Assembly (NCBI GenBank): GCA_964371025.1
Contig: CAYJKH010000004.1
Coordinates: forward strand, 46,448 to 110,447
DNA from: an uncultured Muribaculaceae bacterium
GTDB taxonomy: Bacteria > Bacillota_I > Bacilli_A > RF39 > UBA660
Direction of reading: 5' to 3'
Length of the DNA stretch: 64,000 nucleotides
Shown: piece by piece, positions 746 to 58,860 of the stretch
Layout: each line of letters begins with the position of its first letter
Numbering within the stretch: the first letter of the stretch is position 1
Translations under genes and position numbers: made by a program
Notes under the pieces: generated by a model
Database searches by the model: none
What the model was told of the DNA's origin: nothing
The model's input: the letters and a program-made list of their open reading frames with translations, nothing else

Positions 746-2389
746 ATGAAAAAATTAAAGAACTGTAAAGTTGAAATAATAGCATTATTTATAGTAATTA
801 TATTATTAATAGGGTCATCATATGCCTTATTTGTAATATCTAATCAAAGTACTAATGAAATAAAGTTTACAGGACATCAGTATCAATCTCTTGTCTTAAA
901 TGACACTGAAGCTACTTCTATTAATATGTTAAATGCATATCCTATGAGTGACTCTAAAGGATTAAGAACAACAGTTTATGAATTTACTTTAACAAATAAT
1001 GATACAATATATCAAGATTATACTTTATATATTGATACTTATAAAGACCTTCCAAATGAGACTTTAGGGGAATATAAAAAGATATCATTTACAAAAAATG
1101 GAACAACTAATCCAGTAGTAGAATTATCAAGTTTACCAACTATGCCTTTAACTGAAGACGATCCAACTATGGATGATACTATTATGAAAAAAATCATTAT
1201 AGACGAAGGATTAATTGCTCCAGGAGAAACTATAACTTATTCATATCAAATATGGATAAAAGAGGATGCTCCTGATACTGTTCAAGGAACAATGTTTAAT
1301 GGTAAAGTTAAAGTACTAGGTAGCCAAACTATTGAAAGGTATTCTGCGATGAAGGCAGTAGATGCTCCGGGTGGATGGTTTGAAGCGTTAGGAACTATAT
1401 ATCAAACTTCTGTTGCATATGATGAAATTAATGAAATTATCTTTGAAAAAAGTAGTGACACAACTTCATATGAAAATGCTATAAATAAATGGGACTTTTC
1501 CAATAATAATGATGAAAGTATCTTAGCGTATCTTGACAATAATAAAGTTTTTCATATCCAGTCTGAAAATAAAATTTTAGCACCTGAAAGTTTAAATAAT
1601 ATGTTTGCTATTCCTATTACAAAAGTCAACTTTGAAAATTTTAGTACCATAAATACAATAAATATGACTAATATGTTTAATTATAGTGAATTAACTAGTA
1701 TAGATTTAAGTTCTTTTGATACAAGTAATGTAGTGGATATGAGCGAAATGTTTTATGAGAGTAAATTCACATCTTTAGACTTAAGTAATTTTGATACAAG
1801 CAAGGTTATAAAAATGAATAATATGTTTAAAGATACTGAAGTGCAAAGTTTAAATTTATCTAGCTTTGATACAAGTAATGTAGTGGATATGAGCGGGATG
1901 TTTCAACTTAGTAAAGTTAATACTCTAAATTTAGATAATTTTAATACAAGTAAAGTAACAAATATGAGTAGTATGTTTGCCACAGAAACTATTCAAAATT
2001 TAAATATAAATAGTTTTGATACAAGCAATGTAGTAAATATGAGTTCAATGTTTGGAGAAATTGGAGAGATAAGTCTAAATTTAAGTTCATTTGATACAAG
2101 TAAAGTAACAGATATGGGATGGATGTTTTCAAATAGTGAAATTAGCAGCCTAGATTTATCTAATTTTGATACAAGGCAAGTAACAGATATGGAATATATG
2201 TTTTATAATAGTGTTGTAACAAGTCTAGATTTAAATTCATTTGATACAAGTAAAGTAACAAATATGAGTAATATGTTTTTTGAAAGTGCTGTAACAACAG
2301 TATATGCAAGAACATTAGCTGATAAAACAAAATATGATACATCAAGTGGGAAACCAACAGGTTTAAATGTAATTGTTGGAACCCCTTAA
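746..2389 (+). CDS. Surface protein with DUF285/BspA-like 25-residue repeats and an N-terminal signal-anchor
   Basis: AAGAGGTG RBS. Hydrophobic N-terminus (MKKLKNCKVEIIALFIVIILLIGSSYALF), then a beta-rich domain, then nine repeats of consensus LxLSxFDTSxVxxMxxMF. This is the signature of the DUF285 / bacterial surface protein 26-residue repeat family. Confidence 0.8.
   Translation: MKKLKNCKVEIIALFIVIILLIGSSYALFVISNQSTNEIKFTGHQYQSLVLNDTEATSINMLNAYPMSDSKGLRTTVYEFTLTNNDTIYQDYTLYIDTYKDLPNETLGEYKKISFTKNGTTNPVVELSSLPTMPLTEDDPTMDDTIMKKIIIDEGLIAPGETITYSYQIWIKEDAPDTVQGTMFNGKVKVLGSQTIERYSAMKAVDAPGGWFEALGTIYQTSVAYDEINEIIFEKSSDTTSYENAINKWDFSNNNDESILAYLDNNKVFHIQSENKILAPESLNNMFAIPITKVNFENFSTINTINMTNMFNYSELTSIDLSSFDTSNVVDMSEMFYESKFTSLDLSNFDTSKVIKMNNMFKDTEVQSLNLSSFDTSNVVDMSGMFQLSKVNTLNLDNFNTSKVTNMSSMFATETIQNLNINSFDTSNVVNMSSMFGEIGEISLNLSSFDTSKVTDMGWMFSNSEISSLDLSNFDTRQVTDMEYMFYNSVVTSLDLNSFDTSKVTNMSNMFFESAVTTVYARTLADKTKYDTSSGKPTGLNVIVGTP
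1625..2300 (+). repeat. Intragenic tandem repeats, 75 bp (25 codons), about 9 units
   Basis: Near-identical DNA units, for example TTTGATACAAGTAATGTAGTGGATATGAGCG at about 1715 and about 1865. Periodic FDTS(N/K)V..M..MF in the translation. Confidence 0.85.
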
Positions 2390-19319: not shown

Positions 19320-20915
19320 ATGAACGAAAATAATAATTATATATCAACAACAGGAATAACAGAAGAATATGCAAAACAAGCAGAAGACTTTGTAAATTCT
19401 GTTATTAATCAAAATGAACCTGTTAATACTAATGTGTACTCATCAACAACAGGAACATCAGAAGAATATGCAAAACAAGCAGAAGACTTTGTAAATTCTA
19501 TTATTAATCCAGAGTTGGAAACTTCTAAAGAAAATGATGAATTAAACAATAGATATAGTATGAGTAGCCCTATAACTCTGTCAATGTTAATTGATAAGAT
19601 GGATAGTAAAATGATAGAATTATATAATCAATCGGTAGAAGCTACGCTAATTGAAGAAAAGAAAGTACAATATTTTGAAGCGATTGAAAAAGTAGTTATC
19701 AATCGTTTAGAAGAAGCTAAAAAAATAGTTGTTGATTATAATACTGGGGAATCTTATATTTCCAAGGAATTATTTAGAGAAGCTTTAAATATAATTAATT
19801 ATAATGATAATTTAAAAGAAATTGAAAAAGCTTGCGAAGTATACGGATTTGAAAAATATCAAAAAATCAGCTATACGGATCTTATGCAAACTCATGAAAA
19901 ATTAATTAAAGAAGATGTTATTTATAATTCTAATGCTGATAAATTAGAGTATTATGCAGAAGTTTTAGAAAATAAAATAAAAAAAGATGAAGTTGATTAT
20001 AAAGTGTGGACAGCAGGATTAGCTCGAACAACTAGTGATAATAAAGAAAAAGTAAGTATTGCAAAAACTATAAATCCTAATGGTGCTGATACAGTTGATA
20101 ATCCAATTGTACCAGTGGAAGCAAAGCCGATTGTACCAGTATCCTCTAATTTTGAAAAGGTAAATAAAAAAATAGATAAAGATAAAGTAAAACGTATACT
20201 AATAGGAGCGTTGGCAGGAGCTGGATTAAGCTTATTAGTAGGAAGTGTTCCTATTGTTGTTACATCTGCTATTATTTTAGCAACTGGTAAATTTTTAAAA
20301 TCACAAATAAAACCAGAAAATGTTATAGTTTCTATAGAAAATGATGAAAATTTAAAACAAAAATTAAACCATAAACTTCATGATTTTGTTTTAAATGGAA
20401 ATTTAGATAAGACACTGGACTTTGTTAAAGGAGCTGCGATTGGGGCTGCTGCTACGGGAATTATTGAAACAGGAATTCAGCATGCTATGACAAACGGCGA
20501 TAGCGGTTCATCGAGTATATCAGATGTGGTAAACAAAGCAGAAGCAAATTTTTCGAATTTAGAAGTTCCAACAGAACCTTCTAATCCATATGATTCAATT
20601 CAAATAGGTGAGTCTATTGATTCATATAATATAACAGAAGGATATAATTCTTCTAATATGGCAGTTGATGATGTAAATGTAGAATCACTTAATTCAGAGT
20701 ATGTAAATGGAGAAAACAGTGAAATAGGAAGATTTGCTATATTAGATGATGCGGGAAGTGTAGAGCAAATTATTAGTGAAGAAGGAGTTAGTGCTTCTGA
20801 TTTAATTGATCAAGGATATAATCCTGATAATATAGCAATTGATGTTCAAAATACATCGGGTGAATCACAGGCATGGACAAATATTGATCAGTATACTCAA
20901 GGTAAATCAAGATAA
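19320..20915 (+). CDS. Membrane-anchored protein of unknown function with duplicated N-terminal motif
   Basis: GGGGGA RBS. Two copies of STTG..EEYAKQAEDFVNS.IN. Central hydrophobic segments (ILIGALAGAGLSLLVGSVPIVVTSAIILATG, GAAIGAAATGIIETG). Acidic Ser/Asn-rich C-terminal domain. Confidence 0.6.
   Translation: MNENNNYISTTGITEEYAKQAEDFVNSVINQNEPVNTNVYSSTTGTSEEYAKQAEDFVNSIINPELETSKENDELNNRYSMSSPITLSMLIDKMDSKMIELYNQSVEATLIEEKKVQYFEAIEKVVINRLEEAKKIVVDYNTGESYISKELFREALNIINYNDNLKEIEKACEVYGFEKYQKISYTDLMQTHEKLIKEDVIYNSNADKLEYYAEVLENKIKKDEVDYKVWTAGLARTTSDNKEKVSIAKTINPNGADTVDNPIVPVEAKPIVPVSSNFEKVNKKIDKDKVKRILIGALAGAGLSLLVGSVPIVVTSAIILATGKFLKSQIKPENVIVSIENDENLKQKLNHKLHDFVLNGNLDKTLDFVKGAAIGAAATGIIETGIQHAMTNGDSGSSSISDVVNKAEANFSNLEVPTEPSNPYDSIQIGESIDSYNITEGYNSSNMAVDDVNVESLNSEYVNGENSEIGRFAILDDAGSVEQIISEEGVSASDLIDQGYNPDNIAIDVQNTSGESQAWTNIDQYTQGKSR
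19344..19509 (+). repeat. Intragenic direct repeat (2 x 67 bp, 99-bp register)
   Basis: 19344-19410 and 19443-19509 differ at only about 3 positions (TCAACAACAGGAA..AGAAGAATATGCAAAACAAGCAGAAGACTTTGTAAATTCT.TTATTAATC). Confidence 0.9.
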
Positions 20916-20938: not shown

Positions 20939-21181
20939 ATGAAAGATAAAGTTATATCATTAAATAATGGTAATCAAGTATTTGTAGTAGAAGAAGTTAA
21001 TTACTTAAATAGAAAATTTGCTTTTTGTAATATTATTAGAGACAATAATCCCACAGAACAATATGTTGTTTTAGAAGTTATTGTAGAAAATGATGTTTTA
21101 CAAGTAAGAGATATTCAAGATAAAAATATAATTGATAATGTATCAGTTTTAATAACAAAACAATTACAAAATAGAGCTTAA
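20939..21181 (+). CDS. DUF1292-like small protein
   Basis: 80 aa. GNQVFVVEEVNYLNRKFAFCNII...YVVLEVI..DVLQVRDI follows the same pattern as 19068..19304 and 27084..27317. GGGGAA RBS. Confidence 0.45.
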   Translation: MKDKVISLNNGNQVFVVEEVNYLNRKFAFCNIIRDNNPTEQYVVLEVIVENDVLQVRDIQDKNIIDNVSVLITKQLQNRA

Positions 21182-21187
21182 ATACTA

Positions 21188-21222
21188 TACTCCATCTCAT
21201 AAATGAGGTGGAGTATTTGCTT
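21188..21222 (+). terminator. Rho-independent terminator
   Basis: ATACTCCATCTC (21188-21199) / GAGGTGGAGTAT (21206-21217), one G-U pair, T-rich tail. Confidence 0.65.
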
Positions 21223-21260
21223 ATTATTTTAATATATGAGATAATTATTATGGTGATTAG

Positions 21261-22148
21261 ATGAATATAGAAGATGCTAAAGATGATTTTATAAATTATT
21301 GTGTTTTTGAAAAAGGGTTGGCTAACCATACTAAGGATTCGTATTTAAATGATTTAAAAATATATATTAATTATTTGAAGTCTAAAAAAATAGAGGATGC
21401 GCTTAATATAAGTGTAGATAATATAAAAGATTATTTAAAATATATTAATAATAAAGAAGTATCTACTATTGCACATAATCTTACAGTTATTAAAAGTTTT
21501 CATCAATATTTATATAAAAATAAACTAGTACTTGATGATGTTACTAGTTCAATTAAACAACCTAAATTATTAAAAAAAATACCTAAAACTATTAGTGATA
21601 ATGATATTGAAAAGTTATTAGATATTACCATTGAAAATAATTTTGATATAAGAAATAAAGCCATGTTAGAACTAATGTATTCATCAGGACTAAGAGTTAG
21701 TGAATTAGTGAATTTAGAGTTAAATGATATAAATATTGAAAATAATACTATTTTAATATATGGTAAGGGTAGTAAAGAAAGATTTTCCTTATTTTCAGAA
21801 TATGCAAAGATTGCTCTTTTAAATTATTTAAATATTAGAAATAGTTTATTAAAGGGGAAAATTACATCAAAAGTATTTTTAAATAATCATGGTACTGGGA
21901 TAACTAGACAAGGTTTTTTTAAAATACTAAAGAAATTACTAGAAGAAAAGAATTTAGATAGTAGTATATCTCCTCATACTTTAAGACATTCTTTTGCTAC
22001 TCATTTACTAGAAAATGGAGCGGATTTAAGAAGTATTCAAGAATTATTAGGACATAGTGATATTTCTACTACTAAGATATATACTCATATAAGTGATAAT
22101 AAAGTTAAGGAAGAATATGAAATGTTTCATACAAGATATAAGAGGTGA
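21261..22148 (+). CDS. xerD: Tyrosine recombinase XerD/XerC type
   Basis: Catalytic region HTLRHSFATHLLENGADLRSIQELLGHSDISTTKIYTH. Followed by deoB, as in Bacillus ripX-drm. Ends in TGA. Confidence 0.85.
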   Translation: MNIEDAKDDFINYCVFEKGLANHTKDSYLNDLKIYINYLKSKKIEDALNISVDNIKDYLKYINNKEVSTIAHNLTVIKSFHQYLYKNKLVLDDVTSSIKQPKLLKKIPKTISDNDIEKLLDITIENNFDIRNKAMLELMYSSGLRVSELVNLELNDINIENNTILIYGKGSKERFSLFSEYAKIALLNYLNIRNSLLKGKITSKVFLNNHGTGITRQGFFKILKKLLEEKNLDSSISPHTLRHSFATHLLENGADLRSIQELLGHSDISTTKIYTHISDNKVKEEYEMFHTRYKR

Positions 22149-22153
22149 TTTAA

Positions 22154-23317
22154 ATGTTATATAAAAGAATATTTGTAATAGTCCTAGATTCTTTAGGAGT
22201 AGGAGAGGCACAAGATGCTATTAATTATGGTGATACAGGAGCTAATACTTTAGGAAATATTAAGGCCAACTATGATTTGTTTGTTCCAAACTTAGAAAAA
22301 ATTGGATTTTTAGATACTATTAGTATGAGTGATAATCAAAATGTTGATGCTTATTATACAATAGCTAAACCTAATAACGCTGGTAAAGATAGTATAAATG
22401 GTCATTATGAGATGTTTGGTGTTAAGAATACAATACCATTTCAAACCTATAATAATGGCTTTACGTTTGAAATATTAAACAATATAGAGGAAATTACAGG
22501 TAGAAGAGTTCTTGGTAATAAAAGTGCTCAGCCAATTGATATAATTAATGAGTTAGGAGAAAGACAAGTTAATTATGGATCTTTGATAATATATACTTCT
22601 GCTAATTCAGATTTATCAATATCAGCCCATGAAGATTCTATTCCACTTCCAACACTATATCAATATGCAGAAAGTATTAGGGCTTTAACTTTAACTGAAG
22701 ATTTTAGAATAGGAACAGTTACAGCAAGGCCTTTTACAGGAATTCCTGGTAAATATAAATTAATTAATTCTGCTAAAAGAGAATATTCTCTAAAACCTCC
22801 TGCAAAGTCTGTTTTAGAGTCATTAGTAGAAAATAAGTATAATGTTATCGGAATAGGGAAGATTAATAATTTAATGGCTGGAGTAGGGATAACTAAACAA
22901 ATAAATGCTACTTCTAATGAAGAGGCTATTAATAAATTAAATGATATTATAGATAAAGATTTTACAGGTCTATGTGTTACTAATTTATCAGACTTTGATA
23001 CATATGGACATATGAGAGATTTAGAATCTTATGCTAATAAAATTGAAGAAGTTGATGTAGAAATATCTATGTTATTAAATAAAATAGAAAATGATGATTT
23101 AGTTATTATAACAGCAGATCATGGAAATGATCCAACATTTACTGGAAGTAATCATACTAGAGAAAATGTTCCAGTAATTATATATTCTAGAGAATTTAAG
23201 CATCCTAAAAGACTAAAAGAATTTAATACTTTAGCTAATATTGGTGCAACTATAGCCGATAATTTTAATATAGAACTACCTAAGATAGGTATAAGTATAT
23301 TAGATGATTTAATGTAA
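22154..23317 (+). CDS. deoB: Phosphopentomutase
   Basis: N-terminal VLDSLGVGE and C-terminal ITADHGNDPT metal-site motifs. 387 aa. Confidence 0.9.
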   Translation: MLYKRIFVIVLDSLGVGEAQDAINYGDTGANTLGNIKANYDLFVPNLEKIGFLDTISMSDNQNVDAYYTIAKPNNAGKDSINGHYEMFGVKNTIPFQTYNNGFTFEILNNIEEITGRRVLGNKSAQPIDIINELGERQVNYGSLIIYTSANSDLSISAHEDSIPLPTLYQYAESIRALTLTEDFRIGTVTARPFTGIPGKYKLINSAKREYSLKPPAKSVLESLVENKYNVIGIGKINNLMAGVGITKQINATSNEEAINKLNDIIDKDFTGLCVTNLSDFDTYGHMRDLESYANKIEEVDVEISMLLNKIENDDLVIITADHGNDPTFTGSNHTRENVPVIIYSREFKHPKRLKEFNTLANIGATIADNFNIELPKIGISILDDLM

Positions 23318-23320
23318 AAA

Positions 23321-23352
23321 AAAGAACCCTATATATAACGAGGTTCTTTTTT
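23321..23352. terminator. Terminator hairpin between deoB and the convergent HTH gene
   Basis: AAAGAACC (23321-23328) / GGTTCTTT (23342-23349) with a T-run. The loop is about 13 nt. Confidence 0.55.
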
Positions 23353-23399
23353 AATTAATAATTGAAAGTTAACATAATATCAATTATAGGAAGTTGTAA

Positions 23400-24167
23400 T
23401 TATACTTTTCTAGATTGTATTTCTGCTATTTTTTCAAATACTTCTTTGGCATTATCATCAGTTATTTTATTAAAACCTAATTCTCTTAATGCTAATACTT
23501 TAACTGTATTTAATTCCTGAGTACGAGATAAAATTTCTTCTTTTTTCTGTTCAATATCTTCTACAAATCTTTGATGAGATTCTTTTACTTTATCTTTTTT
23601 TAAAGCTGTACCATCATTAAACATAGTTATGGCACTAAATAAGATACTTTCAAATCTATATTGCTTATCTTCATCATATTCAAATTCTAAAGGATTAGTA
23701 TGTCCTAAAGACTTAGATACATATGCTAGAATATATTTTAATTCTACATTAGTCTCCATAGCTTGAATAAAGTGGTATAAGAAGTTATACGTTGTATATG
23801 TTTCATCTGATGAATCATTAATAAGTTTTTCTTTTAAAATATTTATTAAATCTGTAAATAGGGCTTGTTCTTTCTTATTAACTCCCCTCATATCACAAAA
23901 TAAATCACGAGAAGAATCATTAACACCTTCTTTTAATCTTTTTTCAACTTCAATGATATAATCTCCACTTAAGTTAATATTTTTAATATCATTAATGGCC
24001 TCTAAATTTAATAAACTAAGTAATTTAACCGCTTTTTCTTTAGGCCAATCATTCATATTATCAATTGCTAAATAATTGTATAACATTTGTCTTGAAACTC
24101 CTAAATATTTAGCTAGTCTAACCTTACTAATTCCCAGTTCTGTTAATAAAACATTTAATTCTTTCAT
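23400..24167 (-). CDS. XRE-family helix-turn-helix protein with an uncharacterised C-terminal domain
   Basis: N-terminal HTH LTELGISKVRLAKYLGVSRQMLYNY. AGGAGGG RBS. 255 aa. Confidence 0.65.
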   Translation of the reverse strand: MKELNVLLTELGISKVRLAKYLGVSRQMLYNYLAIDNMNDWPKEKAVKLLSLLNLEAINDIKNINLSGDYIIEVEKRLKEGVNDSSRDLFCDMRGVNKKEQALFTDLINILKEKLINDSSDETYTTYNFLYHFIQAMETNVELKYILAYVSKSLGHTNPLEFEYDEDKQYRFESILFSAITMFNDGTALKKDKVKESHQRFVEDIEQKKEEILSRTQELNTVKVLALRELGFNKITDDNAKEVFEKIAEIQSRKV

Positions 24168-24189
24168 AACATCTACCCTCCTAATAATA

Positions 24190-24218
24190 ATTTTACCAAT
24201 CTAATGTCAAGTAGTCAA
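24190..24218 (-). promoter_or_regulatory. Putative sigma-A promoter of the HTH gene
   Basis: On the minus strand: TTGACT (24218-24213), 17-nt spacer, TAAAAT (24195-24190), about 20 nt upstream of the RBS. Confidence 0.4.
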
Positions 24219-24287
24219 GTAAGTATTTGTATAATGTTTTACATTTTTTAACAAACTAATAACTTAGGAGGCTATTCCCCTACTCTT

Positions 24288-24533
24288 TTACTTAAATACC
24301 ATAAATAATATTATCTGAGTAATAAATATTAGTGGAATTATAAAATTAAACTTGATTTTCTTAATTTTATGTCTACTAGTAATCATACCCATTATAACTC
24401 CAAGAGAACCTCCCAAAATAGATAATATTATAAAAGTCTTTTCAGATATACGTCTTTTCTTATAAATAGCTAGTAGTTTATCTAAAATCATCAAAAGAAA
24501 AGAAAAGAGATTAATTCCTATAATAAATACCAT
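24288..24533 (-). CDS. DUF1294-family membrane protein
   Basis: 81 aa with the pattern DK..A...K.RISEKTF..LS.LGGSLG...GM....HK. Overlaps the mnmA 3' end by 16 nt. Confidence 0.6.
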   Translation of the reverse strand: MVFIIGINLFSFLLMILDKLLAIYKKRRISEKTFIILSILGGSLGVIMGMITSRHKIKKIKFNFIIPLIFITQIILFMVFK

Positions 24534-25627
24534 AGTTTTTTACCTTCTTTTCTGACTTCTTTAATAATTCCACCACCTATACATATATCATTATCATATA
24601 ATACACAAGCTTGTCCTGGAGTAACTGCTTTTACATCATCATAAGTTACTATTATTTCATTTTCTTTATATTCAATATTTACTTTAATATCTTCTTGTCT
24701 ATATCTAAATTTTGCAAAACATGATGTTGGTCTTAAATCACAATTAAAATTTAAACTATCTACTACACAACTAGTAGAATATAAATACTTAGTATCATCT
24801 CCTAATGATACATAAAGAATATTTTTTTCTAAGTTTTTACCAACTACAAATAATTTATCGATAGTTCCACCTACATTTAAACCTTTTCTTTGCCCTATTG
24901 TATAATACATTAATCCATGATGTTTACCAAGAATAGTAGAAGTATCTATATCAACAATATCACCTTCCATGTTAGGTAAATAATTAGTTAAAAATTGTTT
25001 GAAGTTTCGTTCTCCAATAAAACAAATCCCAGTTGAATCTTTTTTATTATATGTTATTAAGTCATTATCTTCTGCTATTTTTCGAACCTCACTCTTTTTT
25101 AAATTACCAAGCGGGAATAAAACATTTTCCAATTGTTTTTGACTTACTTGGGATAAAAAGTATGATTGATCTTTATTATTATCAATAGCCTTTTTTAAAT
25201 AACCATCTTCTAATTTAACATAGTGTCCTGTTGCAATAAAATCAGCATCTAACTCGATTGCTTTTTTCGTAAAATAATCAAATTTAATATACTTATTACA
25301 CATAATATCTGGATTAGGGGTTCTTCCTTTATTTAATTCATCCAAGAAATACTTAAATACATTATCCCAGTATTCTTCCACAAAATCTACTCGATGAAGG
25401 GGAATATTTAATTTGTCACATACTGTTTTAGCATCATTATAATCTTGTTCTTGAGGACATATATCCTCATCTAGGGTTGGATTACCTAAATAGTCACTAT
25501 TAGCTGTAGAATCCCAATTACGCATGAATAAACCCTCTACAGTATAGCCTAAATCAATTAATAGTTTCGCTGCAACAGAAGAGTCTACTCCTCCACTCAT
25601 TCCGATAATTACTTTTTTATTTTTCAT
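24518..25627 (-). CDS. mnmA: tRNA 2-thiouridine(34) synthase
   Basis: PP-loop GMSGGVDSS, conserved CNKYIKF and GICFIGE segments. GGGTGA RBS favours ATG at 25627 over 25645. Confidence 0.9.
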   Translation of the reverse strand: MKNKKVIIGMSGGVDSSVAAKLLIDLGYTVEGLFMRNWDSTANSDYLGNPTLDEDICPQEQDYNDAKTVCDKLNIPLHRVDFVEEYWDNVFKYFLDELNKGRTPNPDIMCNKYIKFDYFTKKAIELDADFIATGHYVKLEDGYLKKAIDNNKDQSYFLSQVSQKQLENVLFPLGNLKKSEVRKIAEDNDLITYNKKDSTGICFIGERNFKQFLTNYLPNMEGDIVDIDTSTILGKHHGLMYYTIGQRKGLNVGGTIDKLFVVGKNLEKNILYVSLGDDTKYLYSTSCVVDSLNFNCDLRPTSCFAKFRYRQEDIKVNIEYKENEIIVTYDDVKAVTPGQACVLYDNDICIGGGIIKEVRKEGKKLWYLL

Positions 25628-33878: not shown

Positions 33879-33945
33879 ATTGCTCCTTTATTGTATATTA
33901 ATAATATCATAATTAAATATTTAATTCTAGGTGAAAAATATAATA

Positions 33946-33973
33946 AAAGGATTAGAAATATTTCTAATCCTTT
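33946..33973 (-). terminator. Terminator hairpin closing the pilin operon
   Basis: Perfect inverted repeat AAAGGATTAGAAA-TA-TTTCTAATCCTTT. On the minus strand it is followed by a T-rich stretch. Very similar to the hairpin at 2402-2426. Confidence 0.6.
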
Positions 33974-34181
33974 AGAGTCACTCATAGGATATGCATTTAA
34001 CATATTAATAGAAGTTGCTTCAGTATCATTTAAGACAAGAGATTGATACTGATGTCCTGTAAACTTTATTTCATTAGTACTTTGATTAGATATTACAAAT
34101 AAGGAGCTGATGACCCTATTAATAATATAATTACTATAAATAATGCTATTATTTCGACTTTACATGCTTTTAATTTTTTCA
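33965..34181 (-). pseudogene. 5' remnant (about 217 nt) of a DUF285 surface-protein gene paralogous to 746..2389
   Basis: The reverse complement aligns base-for-base with 746-964, with about 10 substitutions and a 1-nt indel. The reading frame stops after 29 codons (MKKLKACKVEIIALFIVIILLIGSSAPYL*). Homology ends at AAAGGATTA, where the terminator hairpin begins. Confidence 0.85.
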
Positions 34182-34207
34182 TATATACTGTTCTCTTTGT
34201 TATCTCA

Positions 34208-35719
34208 TTATTTAACTACAAAAGTTAATCCTGCGGGTCTAGAATTAGTTTTTTCTAATATAGCTTTATCAGCAGTATTTCTCACATATACTGTATTAAG
34301 TGTCGTATTTTCAGCAAAAGTTGCTGCAATATTGTATGATACATCAGTTAAGACCCCACTAAAATCATTTTTAGATAAATCTAAAGTTGTCATACTAGTT
34401 AACCCTCTAAAAGTTGATTGTATATTTTCAACATTACTCGTATCCCAACTAGATATATCAAGTGATTTCAATTTATAACAATGTAGGAAAAAACTTTGCA
34501 TATTTGTTATTAAATGAGGATTAAAACCCGTTAAATCAAGTGTTTCCATTTTGTAATTATAAGCAAACATAGCATAAGCATTAGTAACATTAGTAACATT
34601 AAAAGTAGATAAGTCTAGATTAATTATGTTATCCATTTGTCTAAACATACCATACATATAAGTTGTTTTATCAGTATTTAAAGTTGATACATCTAAATGT
34701 TCGATTGCTGAACAATCCATAAATACACCACCCATGTTAGTTACATCTCTAGTATCAAATATTCCATTAAATTCAATAGTTTTCAATGTTGTAAAACTTC
34801 TAAACATATTTTGAATACTCTCAGGAGCTAATATTCTATTATTAGATTGAATATGTAAAACATTAGTGCTATCAATATATGCTAGAATCGTACCATCATT
34901 ATTTTCTGAATAGTCCCATTTATTTGTAGCGTTATCATATGCTGCTTGATCTATTCCTTTTTCAAATAAAACACCCTCTAGTTCAAACTTAGGAGTAAAT
35001 GTTGCTCCATCATATCCTGTGAACATAGCATCATACCAACCACCAGTAGCGTCAAAAGCTTTCATTTTAACTGCATCACTTCTATCATAATTCATTACAA
35101 ATTCATCATAATTAACAGGAACTGTAACTATTAAATCATACGGTTCTTCTAATTCGTTATGAGCAAAATTTATTTCAAGTGTAAATATACTATTACTAAT
35201 AGTTGTTTTAATATTACTTATAGTTAAGTTAGGAAAGAAGATTCCTGAATCTTTATATTCTCTTTCTCCTAGATTTGGTACTTTATAATCTTCATCATCA
35301 TAAATAATTGATGTTATGCTTTTTAAATTGATTAACTCTGCTATTACAGAAGCATCTTCATTTGCTTCTAATAAACCAGCAACATCTCTACTTTTTATAA
35401 TCAAATCTTTTGTAGAACCATCTGTAAAAGAAAAAGTTATATTACTAGTAGTTACATACTTAGTATTATCATTATTTGTATTACCCGCTGTTGTTGTATT
35501 AAATGTTACATCTTCTAATCCCATTTCTACTATATCCTTTTGAATATCTCTATTTAATAAATCTTTATATGTAAATAAATCTAATTTATATGCTTCAATA
35601 GTATTTTTGTTAAAAAATCCAATTACTGAATTAAATAAAACTACTGATAATACTGCTACTATTGAAAAAGTAATTACTAATTCTACAGAAGTTAACCCTT
35701 TTTTATTTATTCTTCTCAT
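34208..35719 (-). CDS. Modular type IV pilin-like protein with C-terminal DUF285/BspA-like repeat domain
   Basis: AAGGAG RBS. Prepilin-type leader MRRINKKG|LTSVELVITFSIVAVL (Gly-1, Glu+5). The central about 90 aa is homologous to the 547-aa protein. Five 26-residue repeats of the LDLSxF(D/N)xxNVTNxxxMF type. Confidence 0.75.
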   Translation of the reverse strand: MRRINKKGLTSVELVITFSIVAVLSVVLFNSVIGFFNKNTIEAYKLDLFTYKDLLNRDIQKDIVEMGLEDVTFNTTTAGNTNNDNTKYVTTSNITFSFTDGSTKDLIIKSRDVAGLLEANEDASVIAELINLKSITSIIYDDEDYKVPNLGEREYKDSGIFFPNLTISNIKTTISNSIFTLEINFAHNELEEPYDLIVTVPVNYDEFVMNYDRSDAVKMKAFDATGGWYDAMFTGYDGATFTPKFELEGVLFEKGIDQAAYDNATNKWDYSENNDGTILAYIDSTNVLHIQSNNRILAPESIQNMFRSFTTLKTIEFNGIFDTRDVTNMGGVFMDCSAIEHLDVSTLNTDKTTYMYGMFRQMDNIINLDLSTFNVTNVTNAYAMFAYNYKMETLDLTGFNPHLITNMQSFFLHCYKLKSLDISSWDTSNVENIQSTFRGLTSMTTLDLSKNDFSGVLTDVSYNIAATFAENTTLNTVYVRNTADKAILEKTNSRPAGLTFVVK

Positions 35720-35728
35720 ATATTCTCC

Positions 35729-36286
35729 TTATATACTAAATTCCATATTACTATATGAAAGGTATTTTTCACCATTTGTACTAGAAGTTCTTTCGAATTC
35801 TACAAACATTCTATATTTATTATTGTATTTAGATGCTACCGTAAAACTAGGTAGAGAATTTATATATATTTTGAATCCCTCTGTTGTAATATCAGAATTA
35901 TTTATAGTATTTTTAAAGTCTGTTATTTTATAACTTGTTATATACACTGTTTTAATATCATTTGCTGAAACTAAAGCTCTACAAGAATTTTCTTGTTCAG
36001 CATTTAACAAAGTACAAACATCACTATTTTCATATTTTATAAAAGTATTAGTTCCAATAGCAGCATCCACTTCACTACTAGCAGTATCTTTATTATTATC
36101 TTTTATAAGTTTTATAATCCAGTACATTCCATACTTACTATTAACATCGTCATATACTTCTCTTTTTTCATATTCTCCCATAAATACAGCACTATTTACA
36201 AAGATTATGGCAAATAAAGACATTAAAAAAGCTGATACTACTAGTAATTCTACTGTTACAAACCCTTTACAATTATTACTTTTCAT
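35729..36286 (-). CDS. Type IV pilin / pseudopilin-like protein
   Basis: AAGGAG RBS. Leader MKSNNCKG|FVTVELLVVSAFLMSLFAII (Gly-1, Glu+5). 185 aa with a Cys pair (CTLLNAEQENSC) reminiscent of a pilin disulfide loop. Confidence 0.7.
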   Translation of the reverse strand: MKSNNCKGFVTVELLVVSAFLMSLFAIIFVNSAVFMGEYEKREVYDDVNSKYGMYWIIKLIKDNNKDTASSEVDAAIGTNTFIKYENSDVCTLLNAEQENSCRALVSANDIKTVYITSYKITDFKNTINNSDITTEGFKIYINSLPSFTVASKYNNKYRMFVEFERTSSTNGEKYLSYSNMEFSI

Positions 36287-36376
36287 ATATAATTTCTCCT
36301 TGCTATTCTCTATTATTTATTATATACTAATTTATAGTAGAATACCATAGCAATTTATTAAAAAGGGGTTGAAAAT

Positions 36377-37702
36377 ATGGTTACATTTGATTTTACAAAA
36401 ACACCAGTTACGCAAATAGTAGACTATGTAATACTATATGCAGCTAAAGCTAGTTCATCTGATATCCACTTTGACCCTCGTGAAAAAGGATTAATGATTA
36501 GAATCAGAATAGATGGAGAATTACAAGATTTCACATTTATTCCTAAAGATTTTCAGAAAAATTTAATAACTCGTATTAAAATTTTATCTAATATGAATAT
36601 TACAGAAACTAGATTACCACAAGATGGTGCAATTAAGGGTGATTTTTCGGGAGTATATTTAGATATGAGGGTTTCTTCTCTTCCCACTAATGAAGGAGAA
36701 AAAATAGTTATTCGTATTCTTGATTATACTAGAAGTTTTCAAGGCCTAGATTATTTAGGATTTAATCAAGATAATTTAGTAAAAATAAAAAGGATGATTG
36801 AAGTTCCAAATGGAATTATATTAGTCACAGGTGCTACTGGTAGTGGTAAATCTACTACTGTATACTCTATGCTCCAAGCTCTAAATAAACCGGAGATTAA
36901 TATTGTTACAGTAGAAGATCCGGTTGAAATGTCAATTGAAGGTATTAATCAAGTTCAAGTAAATTCAGAAATTGGAATGACTTTTGGAACTGCTTTAAGA
37001 TCTATCTTAAGACAAGACCCAAATATTATTCTAATTGGAGAAATCAGAGATTCGGAAACTGCCAAAATTGCAGTAAGAGCATCTATTACAGGACATTTAG
37101 TTTTATCTACTCTACATACTAATAATACATTATCTACAATTGAAAGATTACTTGATATGGATGTTGAAAGATATTTCTTATCAAGCGCTATTACTGGTAT
37201 TATTTCTCAAAGACTCGCTAAACAGCTATGTCCAAAATGTCGTATACAAAGAGCCGCTACTCCTGGAGAAAAGCAAGCTTATAAAACATTTGCTAATCAA
37301 GATATTACTAATATATGGGACGCTAATAAAGATGGGTGTGAAAATTGTCGAAATGGTTATAAAGGACGAATTGCAATTCATGAAGTATTAGAAATTAATG
37401 AAAATTTACGTGATGTTATAAATGAGGAAAATGTTAAAAAAGAAGTATTAAGAGCGGAAGTTTATGAAAAAAATAATACTATAACTTTATTAAGAGATGG
37501 ATTACTTAAAATAATGAGTGGTTTAACTACATTTGAAGAAATATATAGAATTATTGAAATAGATGAATCTACTATTGTAAAAAAAGTAGAACCTAAAATA
37601 GATAAAACAACAGATTCTCAAGTTACAACCACTCCAATTAATGCAATAACTCCCCCTAATAATACACTTATTCAACACTATAGCCAATCAAATAATCAAT
37701 AA
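36377..37702 (+). CDS. Type IV pilus / competence pseudopilus assembly ATPase (GspE/PilB/ComGA family)
   Basis: RLPQDGAIKG, Walker A GATGSGKST, Asp box VEDPVE, Walker B ILIGEIRD, His box GHLVLSTLHTN, tetracysteine CPKC...CENC. Has a Thr/Pro/Asn-rich C-terminal tail. Confidence 0.85.
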   Translation: MVTFDFTKTPVTQIVDYVILYAAKASSSDIHFDPREKGLMIRIRIDGELQDFTFIPKDFQKNLITRIKILSNMNITETRLPQDGAIKGDFSGVYLDMRVSSLPTNEGEKIVIRILDYTRSFQGLDYLGFNQDNLVKIKRMIEVPNGIILVTGATGSGKSTTVYSMLQALNKPEINIVTVEDPVEMSIEGINQVQVNSEIGMTFGTALRSILRQDPNIILIGEIRDSETAKIAVRASITGHLVLSTLHTNNTLSTIERLLDMDVERYFLSSAITGIISQRLAKQLCPKCRIQRAATPGEKQAYKTFANQDITNIWDANKDGCENCRNGYKGRIAIHEVLEINENLRDVINEENVKKEVLRAEVYEKNNTITLLRDGLLKIMSGLTTFEEIYRIIEIDESTIVKKVEPKIDKTTDSQVTTTPINAITPPNNTLIQHYSQSNNQ

Positions 37703-37736
37703 AAAGCAATTCACTCTGATATGAATTGCTTTTTTT
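37702..37736. terminator. Bidirectional terminator (ATPase / tmk)
   Basis: AAAAGCAATTC (37702-37712) / GAATTGCTTTT (37723-37733) plus a T-run. Confidence 0.7.
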
Positions 37737-57345: not shown

Positions 57346-58860
57346 ATGAAAAAATTAAAAAATAAAAAAATACTAATTCCAAGCATTATTTTAATATTAA
57401 TAATAATTATTGGAGTTACAATCTATTTTATTAAAAGTAATAATATAGATTATAGTCTAGTACATACTCAAATTGATACTAATAGTTGTGAGGATATTAA
57501 AACTACTAGTCATGAAATATTATTTTTAGTAAATGGTTACCCTTTAGTAGTTGATACTAAAAGTGATGAGGTACACTATAACACTACTCAACTAACTACT
57601 GAATTGGCAAATGAAATTACTTTATGTAATTCTAAAGGATATGAGGTATTAGTTAATGAAGAAAAATTAACTAATAAGAAAAGTCTAGATATAAACCTAG
57701 ATACACTAAGTATGGATGAATATATAAATATTACTCTTAGTAAAAATAATGAAGAAAAAGATGTATTAATTAGAACTTTACATGAAAACATTAACTTTTC
57801 CACACAAGGAGAAAGTGATGATGGTTACTATTATTTTGATTATAATAATGGTGCAGTTAAGATGGATAATGAAGGGAATGTTGTATTTTACAAAGTAACA
57901 GAGTTTATTAGAAATTTCAAAAAATATGAAATTGATGGTAAAACTTATTATGGTCATTTAGAACAAGCTTATGTTTACGATAATATTACTGTTGAAGGTG
58001 CTAAACATATGAAACTTATTGTAATGGATGATGAGTATAATATAGTAGATACTGTTGATTACTTAAATGCTAGTAATGGTATTCATGAAAATCATTCTCT
58101 AGAAAATCATGACTATCAAATACTTGATTTAGGACATTATATTGTAACAGCATACGTTGCAGAAGATGTTGATAATGTTTCTGCAGACTTAATGATCAAT
58201 GATGATAAAGAGGCAAAAGTTGCAGCAGCAGTTTTCCAAGAAATAAAAGATGATGAGCTAATATTTGAGTTTAATTCTATTAACTATCCAGAATTATATG
58301 AGTATAGTACTGATCGTAATAATTATGGAGATGATGAATATCAAGATTATATGCATTTAAACTCTGTTATAATTGATCCAAATGATGGTAATTATATTAT
58401 TTCATTAAGAAGTATGGATGGAATTATTAAAGTTAATAAACAAACTTCTGATATTATGTGGATTCTAGGAGGAATTGGTGATCAATTTGATGTTGGCAAT
58501 TATCAACCATCACGTCAACACTATGCTACTATATCAATTAATGATACCTTAACATTATATGATAATGGTAATACAAATGAACAATCAAGAATCTTAGAGT
58601 ATAAGTTAGATGAAGATAATAAAGAATTAATTAAAGCTAATGAATTCCAAATTGATGGATATTTTGGAAGTATAAGAGGTTCAACTATCAGATTATCAAC
58701 TGATGAAAATATTTTCTTATCTGCTTGGGGTGAAACTCAAGATAACAAAGCAATCATTACTGAATATAACTTTGATACTGATGAAAAAATATTAGAGATA
58801 TATGATCATACAGAAGAATTAGATAGTAAAACATATCGAGTACATAAATATGATAACTAA
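57346..58860 (+). CDS. Membrane-anchored arylsulfotransferase (ASST)-like beta-propeller protein
   Basis: GGAGG RBS, N-terminal TM. Motifs NGIHENHSLENHDYQIL and DYMHLNSVIIDPNDGNYIISLRSMDGIIKVNKQTSDIMWILGG resemble the ASST family. Confidence 0.5.
   Translation: MKKLKNKKILIPSIILILIIIIGVTIYFIKSNNIDYSLVHTQIDTNSCEDIKTTSHEILFLVNGYPLVVDTKSDEVHYNTTQLTTELANEITLCNSKGYEVLVNEEKLTNKKSLDINLDTLSMDEYINITLSKNNEEKDVLIRTLHENINFSTQGESDDGYYYFDYNNGAVKMDNEGNVVFYKVTEFIRNFKKYEIDGKTYYGHLEQAYVYDNITVEGAKHMKLIVMDDEYNIVDTVDYLNASNGIHENHSLENHDYQILDLGHYIVTAYVAEDVDNVSADLMINDDKEAKVAAAVFQEIKDDELIFEFNSINYPELYEYSTDRNNYGDDEYQDYMHLNSVIIDPNDGNYIISLRSMDGIIKVNKQTSDIMWILGGIGDQFDVGNYQPSRQHYATISINDTLTLYDNGNTNEQSRILEYKLDEDNKELIKANEFQIDGYFGSIRGSTIRLSTDENIFLSAWGETQDNKAIITEYNFDTDEKILEIYDHTEELDSKTYRVHKYDN

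Follow-up and report, generated by a model that had tools for sequence, protein, structure and literature searches.

The modular-pilin concept, with display of a module at the filament tip, comes from PilB of Streptococcus sanguinis (PMC8179133); S. sanguinis PilB, with a vWA module, and PilC, with a lectin module, are the prototypes (PMC8179133; Shahin et al. 2023, PMC9934059). Dataset S1 of Raynaud et al. 2021 (PMC8179133) contains 1219 modular pilins, 22 of which combine N_methyl with DUF285 (IPR012902 and IPR005046, the latter being DUF285) and have from one to nine DUF285 hits. We found no discussion of the pilin and DUF285/BspA combination in the literature beyond this table. In Mollicutes and Firmicutes, surface proteins with DUF285/PARCEL repeats, lipoproteins of the LppQ type, were described by Roske et al. 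2010 (PMC2996958); pilins and prepilin targeting have no occurrences in that paper.

We analysed a 64-kb stretch of DNA (the window) from the genome of an uncultured, very AT-rich gut bacterium. It carries a small type IV filament (T4F) locus in which two pilin genes face an assembly ATPase. The locus is probably the pilin and motor part of a small, lineage-specific T4F system of a gut Bacilli/Mycoplasmatota organism, whose 503-aa subunit is a modular pilin with a grafted DUF285 module. As in S. sanguinis, the host is a monoderm and the modular pilin gene lies, together with another pilin gene, beside T4F machinery. Unlike the vWA and lectin modules of S. sanguinis, the module here is of the DUF285/PARCEL type; in further contrast to S. 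sanguinis, the window locus has two pilins only and no PilC or PilD within 64 kb, and no sequence similarity is detectable between its pilin module and the pilins of S. sanguinis. The features of the locus, and one related gene elsewhere in the window, are as follows.

34208..35719, minus strand: pilin2::DUF285 modular prepilin, 503 aa, stop codon included (ORF; DUF285/PARCEL matches; pilin-module homology)
35696..35719, minus strand: pilin2 leader MRRINKKG, 8 residues, mature N-terminus LTSVE (sequence reading)
35102..35719, minus strand: pilin module, residues 1 to ~206 (~205 aa) (colinearity, tblastn, hhalign, AlphaFold2)
35066..35101, minus strand: linker of ~12 residues (DEFVMNYDRSDAVK region) from the pilin module to the DUF285 module (between two alignment ends)
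34211..35065, minus strand: DUF285/PARCEL module, residues 219-503 (285 aa), with N-cap, repeats and C-cap (PF03382, TIGR02167, AlphaFold2)
35720..35731, minus strand: overlap of the pilin1 stop codon with the pilin2 Shine-Dalgarno sequence, TAAGGAGAATATATG (sequence reading)
35729..36286, minus strand: pilin1 prepilin, 185 aa, leader MKSNNCKG, mature N-terminus FVTVE (orthologues at the same position in relatives)
36266..36376, plus strand: divergent control region, a promoter-like site followed by a GGGG-rich ribosome-binding site 5′ of the ATPase start
36377..37702, plus strand: GspE/PilB-type extension ATPase, 441 aa, without N1 domain (PF00437, motifs, PDB matches)
37701..37734, either strand: bidirectional terminator-like hairpin immediately 3′ of the ATPase (hairpin prediction; synteny comparison)
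33946..33973, minus strand: terminator-like hairpin 3′ of the pilin operon (hairpin prediction)
746..2389, plus strand: DUF285/PARCEL surface protein of 547 aa, a non-pilin paralogue with an ordinary signal anchor (BLASTP, PF03382, TIGR02167)

The ORF coordinates agree with the divergent arrangement originally described, the starts of pilin1 and the ATPase being separated by 90 bp, and the layout, with divergent genes and two pilins, is indeed unlike the colinear comG operon. The two pilin genes make up one co-transcribed operon, as shown by the overlap of the pilin1 stop codon with the pilin2 Shine-Dalgarno sequence, together with the promoter-like site and the flanking terminators. The promoter-like site upstream of the ATPase (TTTACA-16-TATAAT, 36266-36293) has 11 of 12 matches, and is a match to the consensus only.

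Both pilins have the class III prepilin signature, as the original prediction had noted for the two adjacent genes: leaders of equal length (8 residues) ending in Gly, Glu at +5 (L-T-S-V-E in pilin2, F-V-T-V-E in pilin1) and then ~20 hydrophobic residues. When all possible starts in the 64-kb window were scanned, pilin1 and pilin2 were the only genes with this signature at a genuine ORF start. It is conserved in orthologues: Gly8 and Glu13 of pilin2 are invariant across the orthologue alignments, as are G8 (G-1) and E13 (E+5) of pilin1 in 13 orthologues. Cleavage of pilin2 by a prepilin peptidase after Gly8 is predicted from the sequence. The proposal of a second pilin, the 185-aa protein, is supported as well, this protein being a member of a large family (369 representatives at E<=1e-3) that is missed by Pfam; in the best 150 representatives the G-1/F+1/E+5 pattern (G|F-x3-E) is kept in 147, and the modal leader has 8 residues. 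The N-terminus of the 503-aa protein scored 15.1 bits with PF07963 (N_methyl), under the cut-off of 21.2, and pilin1 had no Pfam or NCBIfam match, N_methyl included. Orthologous pilin2 proteins of two relatives, L010 (23.3 bits) and L016 (27.4 bits), exceed the N_methyl cut-off.

The pilin module of the 503-aa protein is colinear with the stand-alone pilin2 (193-199 aa) that occupies the same locus position in three relatives (L034, L032 and L036) and terminates there just past a PINY/PVNY strand. Stand-alone pilin2 proteins of 162-199 aa (P0121-P0132 and those of the three relatives) align to residues 1 to ~205 and stop at that point. In a tblastn search of the window, the L034 pilin2 matched residues 4-203 of the 503-aa protein (E 4.5e-21), and hhalign of the pilin module against the profile of the relatives gave a probability of 94% (E 1.4e-7). 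The ~200 aa of pilin-like sequence seen in the original prediction are supported by full-length homology to the stand-alone pilins of relatives. A word-indexed homology search with residues 1-219 alone produced no match at E<=1; a profile incorporating the relatives retrieved 14 stand-alone pilins. The AlphaFold2 model of residues 1-219 (13 sequences), of moderate confidence (pLDDT 69), has a helix at 11-66 (56 residues) followed by 9-10 beta strands, while residues 31-163 are under pLDDT 50 in the full-length model. Foldseek with the pLDDT 69 model found no pilin resembling it in the PDB (best E 0.12), and in a PDB profile search with the pilin module pilins ranked top at E values that are not significant (0.1-0.4). 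The linker is bounded by the end of the stand-alone-pilin alignment and by residue 219, where the paralogue alignment starts; pLDDT is low at residues 199-210 of the full-length model. The reading of the 503-aa protein as a modular pilin made of a pilin module, a linker and a DUF285 module is supported.

The repeat region scores as DUF285, as expected, with both PF03382 (68.4 bits, cut-off 25; E 5.8e-19) and the TIGR02167 PARCEL 26-residue repeat (93.3 bits, cut-off 30; E 4.5e-27). Where five 26-residue repeats had been counted, we find six in register, at residues 303-458 (nt 34346-34813), plus a degenerate seventh. The segment described as a stalk (residues 219-302) turned out to belong to the DUF285 module as its N-terminal cap; the paralogue at 746-2389 has it too, and it is modelled with high confidence, pLDDT being mainly >90 across residues 211-503. 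Against the PDB, the module gave weak generic LRR matches only, by Foldseek and by sequence, with no solved DUF285 relative. The alignment of DUF285 homologues was made from trimmed sequences; full-length MAFFT had put repeats onto the pilin module. The paralogue matches PF03382 with E 1.8e-69 and TIGR02167 in 8 stretches, and in BLASTP its residues 202-544 align to residues 219-502 of the 503-aa protein (E 2e-47) with both caps included. The donor of the grafted module is therefore likely to be the resident DUF285 surface-protein family that this paralogue represents. Known DUF285/PARCEL proteins of the LppQ type share with the window module the same family of 25-26-residue amphipathic repeats; they are lipoprotein- or signal-anchored, whereas the window module is borne by a pilin.

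The ATPase belongs to the GspE/PilB/ComGA family and has all catalytic boxes and the tetracysteine motif, just as first proposed: PF00437 (T2SSE domain) matches with E 3.8e-120, and the motifs are Walker A at 152, Asp box at 179, Walker B at 217, His box at 239, CPKC at 285 and CENC at 321. PDB matches are GspE, PilF and PilB at E 1e-97 to 1e-92, compared with 1e-37 for PilT. With the GspE/PilB/PilF extension ATPases it shares the N2 and C-terminal domains, Walker A/B, the Asp and His boxes and the tetracysteine Zn motif; unlike them it has no N1 domain, matching GspE/PilB profiles only from profile position 106/178 on, and it has a ~45-residue low-complexity C-terminal tail. The NCBIfam equivalog cut-offs are missed for GspE (465 vs 630 bits), PilB (458 vs 676) and ComGA (267.7 vs 300), and no subtype is assigned. 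By its sequence, membership in the GspE/PilB-type family is clear, and an extension-type T4F motor is the supported assignment.

Seventeen related genome loci from uncultured gut Bacilli/Mycoplasmatota share the gene order MutS, YlbL-like gene, pilin2, pilin1 / ATPase. In 12 of the 16 informative related loci, PilD (PF06750 and PF01478) and PilC (PF00482, two copies) follow directly 3′ of the ATPase. In the window the downstream flank of the ATPase is rearranged, and the hairpin at 37701..37734 marks the synteny break, at the place where relatives carry PilD and PilC. The original prediction was right that the 64-kb window has no platform protein or prepilin peptidase: tblastn to E 10 across the window detected no PilC or PilD, whether whole or as remnants. 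Further pilins are also absent from the 64 kb, and the locus shows no evident major pilin of the usual size. The label ‘orphan’ applies to the window only: most relatives carry PilD/PilC directly beside the ATPase, and the flank is rearranged here. Scans of genome and metagenome collections based on the ATPase gave a closest relative at 67% identity; the closest relative found was L034 (68%), reached via pilin1. A 423-aa gene beside a pilin in L012, considered as a PilC candidate, was rejected, since it is an asparagine synthase.

In the mechanism we propose, both prepilins would enter the membrane, a prepilin peptidase would trim the 8-residue leaders after Gly8, and the PilB-type ATPase with a PilC platform would polymerise the pilins into a filament via their N-terminal helices. 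PilC and PilD would be encoded elsewhere in the host genome. The larger subunit would have arisen by addition of a complete DUF285/PARCEL solenoid to the C-terminus of the ~205-aa pilin module via the ~12-residue linker; because of its bulk, this subunit would most likely occupy the tip of the filament or form part of a short pseudopilus. The LRR-like module may then be displayed as a ligand-binding (adhesion) surface, an adhesin role that we infer by analogy.

The missing PilC and PilD may be explained otherwise, as the sign of a remnant system in which the machinery was lost after the rearrangement, the pilin-like N-termini serve as uncleaved signal anchors that tether the DUF285 module to the membrane as a mere surface protein, and the ATPase is idle or re-used. 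The 64-kb window without PilC, PilD or their remnants would fit such a loss, as would a synteny break exactly at the PilD/PilC position of relatives, the use of other anchors by most DUF285 proteins and the sub-threshold N_methyl scores. Against it, the ATPase is full-length, lacks none of the catalytic motifs and has a promoter-like site and a terminator of its own, and both pilins retain G-1 and E+5. Split loci are, moreover, a stable state in the clade: in six other lineages (L007, L012, L014, L015, L018 and L034) intact pilins and an intact ATPase occur with no PilD/PilC next to them, and in L011 the ATPase, PilD and PilC are kept but have no pilins beside them. We therefore regard the remnant reading as unlikely.

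Slightly more doubtful is a Com-type DNA-uptake pilus or T2SS-like pseudopilus, with the pilins as minor subunits and the DUF285 module serving something other than adhesion to a host or partner. The host lineage is monoderm, the ATPase lacks N1 like ComGA and scores 267.7 bits with the ComGA core model, the N-terminus of the L001 pilin2 is faintly ComGE-like (E 5e-4), and the locus is without a typical major pilin. Yet that ComGA score is below the equivalog cut-off and the GspE/PilB profiles score far higher; the PilC of relatives has 296 bits to GspF against 142 to ComGB (cut-off 240); a colinear comGA-GG operon is absent; and the pilins do not resemble ComGC. With the ComGA and ComGB cut-offs unmet and a divergent layout with two pilins, we rejected the assignment to a Com pilus. 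As for chance resemblance of the N-termini to pilins in an AT-rich genome, the motifs are short and neither N-terminus attains a curated cut-off; but the signature occurs in only two ORFs of the 64 kb, which adjoin each other and a T4F ATPase, it is conserved over hundreds of homologues, and the synteny of relatives includes PilD and PilC. Chance is thus effectively refuted. The preferred reading remains that of a small T4F system with a modular pilin.

The fusion is a further example of the catalogued modular-pilin design and makes no new category. A DUF285 module on a pilin scaffold had been thought novel, a claim that does not survive the 22 such proteins in Dataset S1 and others among the homologues; canonical pilin-DUF285 proteins are found among the top homologues of the window protein (P0047, P0008/P0025, P0035 and P0056). 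The N_methyl+DUF285 proteins of Dataset S1 have the same two-part architecture. Examples of that type which we checked are mostly stand-alone genes remote from T4F machinery, whereas the window protein is encoded in the core locus. The window protein would escape the survey of Raynaud et al., because its N-terminus is under the N_methyl cut-off. More widely, the Pfam N_methyl model misses both the widespread pilin1 family (369 representative clusters) and its partner family, so that modular-pilin surveys based on InterPro undercount them.

The locus offers a natural example of the origin of a modular pilin: a stand-alone pilin of ~195 aa, persisting in closer relatives, gained a whole DUF285 module with both caps, and the grafted module has its nearest full-length match in a non-pilin paralogue encoded by that same genome. 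The analysis also places a T4F system in Mycoplasmatota-like gut bacteria that are uncultured and poorly known. As a tentative generalisation, for which the case is somewhat short of even, the C-termini of the two pilins in a minimal T4F locus might be an exchange site for surface modules in reduced-genome gut Bacilli/Mycoplasmatota, and the window would show a DUF285 module that was recently grafted, whole, from a gene for a resident surface protein. If true, this would point to cassette-like re-targeting of the filament tip as hosts are adapted to. In that syntenic position pilin2 is found module-free, with an Ig-like and an ALK-type glycine-rich domain, with unassigned extensions, or with DUF285; pilin1 too occurs in long forms. 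The same fusion beside a divergent ATPase was also found in related genomes: a second lineage (P0056, L018) likewise has pilin1, pilin2::DUF285 and the divergent ATPase, and there P0056, seen on 21 contigs, is a pilin-DUF285 protein encoded in the orthologous locus.

The window has a G+C content of ~26% throughout. The three ORFs of the original prediction, two prepilin genes (here pilin1 and pilin2) and a divergent ATPase gene, were recovered exactly as claimed. The locus contains the following features:

33946-33973, terminator-like hairpin downstream of the pilin pair
34208-35719, minus strand, pilin2 ORF (503 aa)
35729-36286, minus strand, pilin1 ORF (185 aa)
36266-36293, promoter-like site of the ATPase gene (11/12 consensus match)
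36377-37702, plus strand, ATPase ORF (441 aa; 90 bp gap to the 185-aa gene)
37701-37734, bidirectional terminator-like hairpin at the ATPase end

The stop codon of pilin1 overlaps the Shine-Dalgarno sequence of pilin2 (TAAGGAGAATATATG). Together with the hairpins and the promoter-like site, this overlap indicates a compact unit in the order terminator, pilin2, pilin1, divergent control region, ATPase and terminator; beyond the ATPase the window carries tmk, an HD-domain gene, a HemN-like gene and lepA. The class III prepilin signature ascribed to the two minus-strand proteins is present at the N-terminus of each: an 8-residue leader with a final Gly, Glu at +5 and ~20 hydrophobic residues. When every possible start codon in the six frames of the window was scanned with a regular expression, the signature was found at a genuine ORF start in these two genes only, the remaining matches being internal starts within housekeeping genes.

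The ATPase belongs to the GspE/PilB family (PF00437, E 3.8e-120), and every motif reported for it was found: Walker A, Asp box, Walker B, His box and the tetracysteine CPKC...CENC. It scores under every equivalog cut-off and aligns with the GspE and PilB profiles only from positions 106 and 178 on, so the N1 domain is missing. Among solved structures, GspE, PilF and PilB (E 1e-97 to 1e-92) match far better than PilT (1e-37), which marks it as an extension motor.

The profile searches supported one part of the proposed pilin-DUF285 fusion directly. The 503-aa protein passes the cut-offs of PF03382 DUF285 (68.4 bits, cut-off 25, E 5.8e-19) and of the TIGR02167 PARCEL repeat (93.3 bits, cut-off 30), but it reaches only 15.1 bits against PF07963 N_methyl (cut-off 21.2) and the 185-aa protein gives no match to that model; the N-termini are the weak point of the family assignment. 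The 26-residue repeats are present as described, but there are six in register (residues 303-458) plus a degenerate seventh, rather than five. Against PDB, the DUF285 module gave weak, generic LRR matches at most.

The pilin-like character of residues 1 to ~206 was confirmed by full-length homology to stand-alone pilins of relatives. A profile of the relatives' pilin module aligned with residues 5-197 of the window pilin2 (hhalign 94%, E 1.4e-7, 150 columns), and a search with this profile yielded 14 proteins, most of which are pilins of 162-172 aa that stand alone. In L034, a closer related locus reached via pilin1 (ATPase 68% and pilin1 40% identical), pilin2 is a stand-alone protein of 193 aa with a weak N_methyl match, and it aligns with window residues 4-203 (E 4.5e-21). 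The stand-alone pilins of L034 and of two further loci, L032 and L036, are colinear with the window pilin2 from Met1 to the conserved PINY/PVNY strand (~residue 205) and end there. Residues 219-502 of pilin2, in turn, align end to end (E 2e-47) with residues 202-544 of a non-pilin DUF285/PARCEL protein of 547 aa encoded in the same window (746-2389, plus strand), and the alignment takes in the C-cap as well as the N-cap (MKAxDAxGGW...NKWD...ILAPES), which is well conserved. By these alignments, the 503-aa protein has its pilin module at residues 1-~206, followed by a linker of ~12 residues, and its DUF285 module, which is complete, at residues 219-503. The window pilin2 is a graft. The homology and synteny of the relatives settle the pilin identity of the window proteins.

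The paralogue itself has eight DUF285/PARCEL repeat matches. Many DUF285 homologues (e.g. the proteins P0006 and P0107) have a signal anchor plus 'SYA[FL]' motif, and the N-terminus of the paralogue (MKKLKNCKVEIIALFIVIILLIGSSYALFVISNQS) is similar to it and looks like a putative SipW/TasA-type signal. No family match was obtained for the paralogue's N-terminal domain of ~200 aa.

The full-length AlphaFold2 model has pLDDT mostly >90 over residues 211-503. In a separate model of residues 1-219 (13 sequences), residues 11-66 form a helix of 56 residues and beta strands come after it, a predicted topology compatible with a pilin, but at pLDDT 69, and a Foldseek search with this model found no solved pilin resembling the module.

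The pilin1 protein aligns with the same-position protein of 12 relatives, with G8 and E13 invariant. When 1.84 billion cluster representatives were searched exhaustively with phmmer, 369 matched at E<=1e-3 and 163 of them at E<=1e-10. Most of these matches are full-length and have 170-220 aa; sixteen of the best 150 exceed 300 aa. Among these 150, G|F-x3-E lies near the N-terminus in 147, the modal leader having 8 residues; of the three exceptions, two are N-terminally truncated and one has Ala at -1. Pfam N_methyl matches none of 13 aligned members, and no NCBIfam model detects the window protein (35729-36286) or its homologues P0135-P0284. Thus pilin1 represents a large, conserved pilin family missed by current domain models, one that will escape InterPro-based pilin surveys.

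With the ATPase as query over one genome per species, we found 17 related loci (ATPase identity 60-65%), all from uncultured gut Bacilli/Mycoplasmatota MAGs, e.g. Candidatus Pelethosoma; in the genome and metagenome collections scanned with this query, no genome came closer than 67% identity. In relatives, MutS and a YlbL-like PDZ/Lon gene come first, usually with a Gate-domain gene after them, and then pilin2, pilin1 and the divergent ATPase. The window has MutS (at 53-54% identity) and the YlbL-like gene (at 33-38%) on that side too. The relatives' plus-strand gene for a Gate-domain (PF07670) membrane protein, which separates the YlbL-like gene from pilin2, is absent from the window, where a 330-bp spacer with the terminator-like hairpin (33879-34207) takes its place.

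No platform protein (PilC) or prepilin peptidase (PilD) had been seen in the 64-kb window, and the relatives' PilC and PilD, as well as their RpoD and DnaG, indeed gave no tblastn match in it even at E 10. The conclusion that the ATPase is an orphan is not supported. Relatives mostly have genes for a prepilin peptidase (PF06750, E 1e-34; PF01478, E 6.5e-17) and for PilC (T2SSF domain twice, E 2e-53; 296 bits with the GspF model) after the ATPase, in convergent orientation: this is so at 12 of the 16 informative loci. Since RpoD and DnaG are essential and yet absent from the window, the whole block must be elsewhere in the genome, and PilD and PilC may have moved with it. The PilD/PilC pair does not adjoin the ATPase in four GTDB loci (L007, L012, L014, L015), nor in L018 and L034, which were found later, and L011 has ATPase, PilD and PilC with no adjoining pilins, so the clade commonly shows split arrangements. 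The relatives' PilC proteins (L001:13747-15843, minus strand, with equivalents in L002, L005, L017 and others) are 590-766 aa long, with an N-terminal extension of ~290 residues before the GspF/PilC-homologous part, which starts at ~residue 293.

The pilin positions of the related loci carry different modules:

Proteins at the pilin2 and pilin1 positions of related loci
pilin2 in L004, L008, L009, L007, L015: 119-179 aa, without extra module
pilin2 in L010, L013, L016: 293-379 aa, without assigned domain
pilin2 in L001, L002, L005, L017: 537-557 aa; in L001, Ig-like domain and ALK/LTK glycine-rich domain (PF12810, E 4e-45)
pilin1 in L007: 599 aa
pilin1 in L012: 368 aa

The pilin2 of L030 also falls in the 537-557-aa group; the PF12810 domain of the L001 protein (L001:7706-9319, minus strand) is an unusual module for a bacterial pilin.

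A second lineage has a DUF285 version as well, P0056 (679 aa, N-terminus G|YMLVEL, on 21 contigs). A pilin1 orthologue (98.4% by hhalign, E 1e-14) precedes its gene, which is divergent from an ATPase 60% identical to that of the window, and the pilin2 profile matches the first 200 residues of P0056 (92.9%, E 3.7e-7). The window N-cap looks less like P0056 than like the paralogue in the same window. Of the 120 homologues that match the 503-aa protein best, P0008/P0025, P0047, P0035 and P0056 have canonical pilin N-termini, and another group has G|ITLIAL-type N-termini with no Glu5. P0047 has a precomputed N_methyl match and is named at NCBI just 'BspA family leucine-rich repeat surface protein'. 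The P0047, P0025 and P0035 genes do not adjoin T4F genes. P0035 is one of two tandem DUF285 genes a few kb upstream of a diversity-generating-retroelement-like pair, bAvd and reverse transcriptase (L022:17206-20517).

IPR026906 is the InterPro entry of BspA-type LRRs. S. sanguinis PilB served to define modular pilins, and an InterPro survey of IPR012902 (class III signal-peptide motif) with extra domains gave 1219 proteins in 264 architectures (Raynaud et al. 2021, PMC8179133). Dataset S1 of that study lists IPR012902 with IPR005046, which is DUF285/PF03382 (Roske et al. 2010, PMC2996958), in nine architecture lines summing to 22 proteins, and IPR026906 likewise appears there (PMC8179133). The suggested novelty of a DUF285 module on a pilin scaffold is thus not supported: the architecture is already catalogued, and P0047 and P0056 are further examples. 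In the literature searched, we found no discussion of a pilin-DUF285 protein in article text, and the PARCEL paper makes no mention of pilins (PMC2996958).

The observation of two pilins, a DUF285 fusion and a divergent ATPase is confirmed by ORFs, profile matches and relatives, and its interpretation as modular pilin, second pilin and motor was largely right, novelty and orphan status apart. We consider it probable that PilC and PilD are encoded elsewhere and that, together with them, the PilB-type ATPase would assemble both prepilins, cut after Gly8; probably, too, the DUF285 solenoid of the 503-aa subunit would serve as a binding module, presented at the tip of a pilus or of a short pseudopilus. 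That the system is a remnant in which the pilin N-termini serve as plain anchors seems unlikely; the sub-threshold N_methyl score and a window empty of PilC and PilD speak for it, and the G-1 and E+5 residues kept in both pilins and the split loci elsewhere in the clade speak against it. We regard it as quite improbable that the filament is of the Com or secretion type and the DUF285 module has another role; the ATPase falls short of the ComGA cut-off and scores far higher with the GspE and PilB profiles. Chance resemblance of the N-termini is exceedingly improbable in view of the relatives' homology and synteny. The locus is instructive for its visible graft junction and for its variable-module position in an uncultured gut lineage.

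Elsewhere in the window, GC skew and gene orientation flip near 24 kb (~21000-25000), with plus-strand genes on the left and minus-strand genes on the right, and at 21261-22148 there is a gene for a tyrosine recombinase of the XerD type (NF001399, 312 bits, above cut-off); the region looks like a replication terminus. A 531-aa protein (19320-20915, plus strand), in which an N-terminal motif (TG..EEYAKQAEDFVNS.IN) is duplicated and a membrane segment lies in the centre, has no NCBIfam match. A signal-anchored protein of 504 aa (57346-58860, plus strand) matches the arylsulfotransferase (ASST) family (PF05935, E 6e-16).
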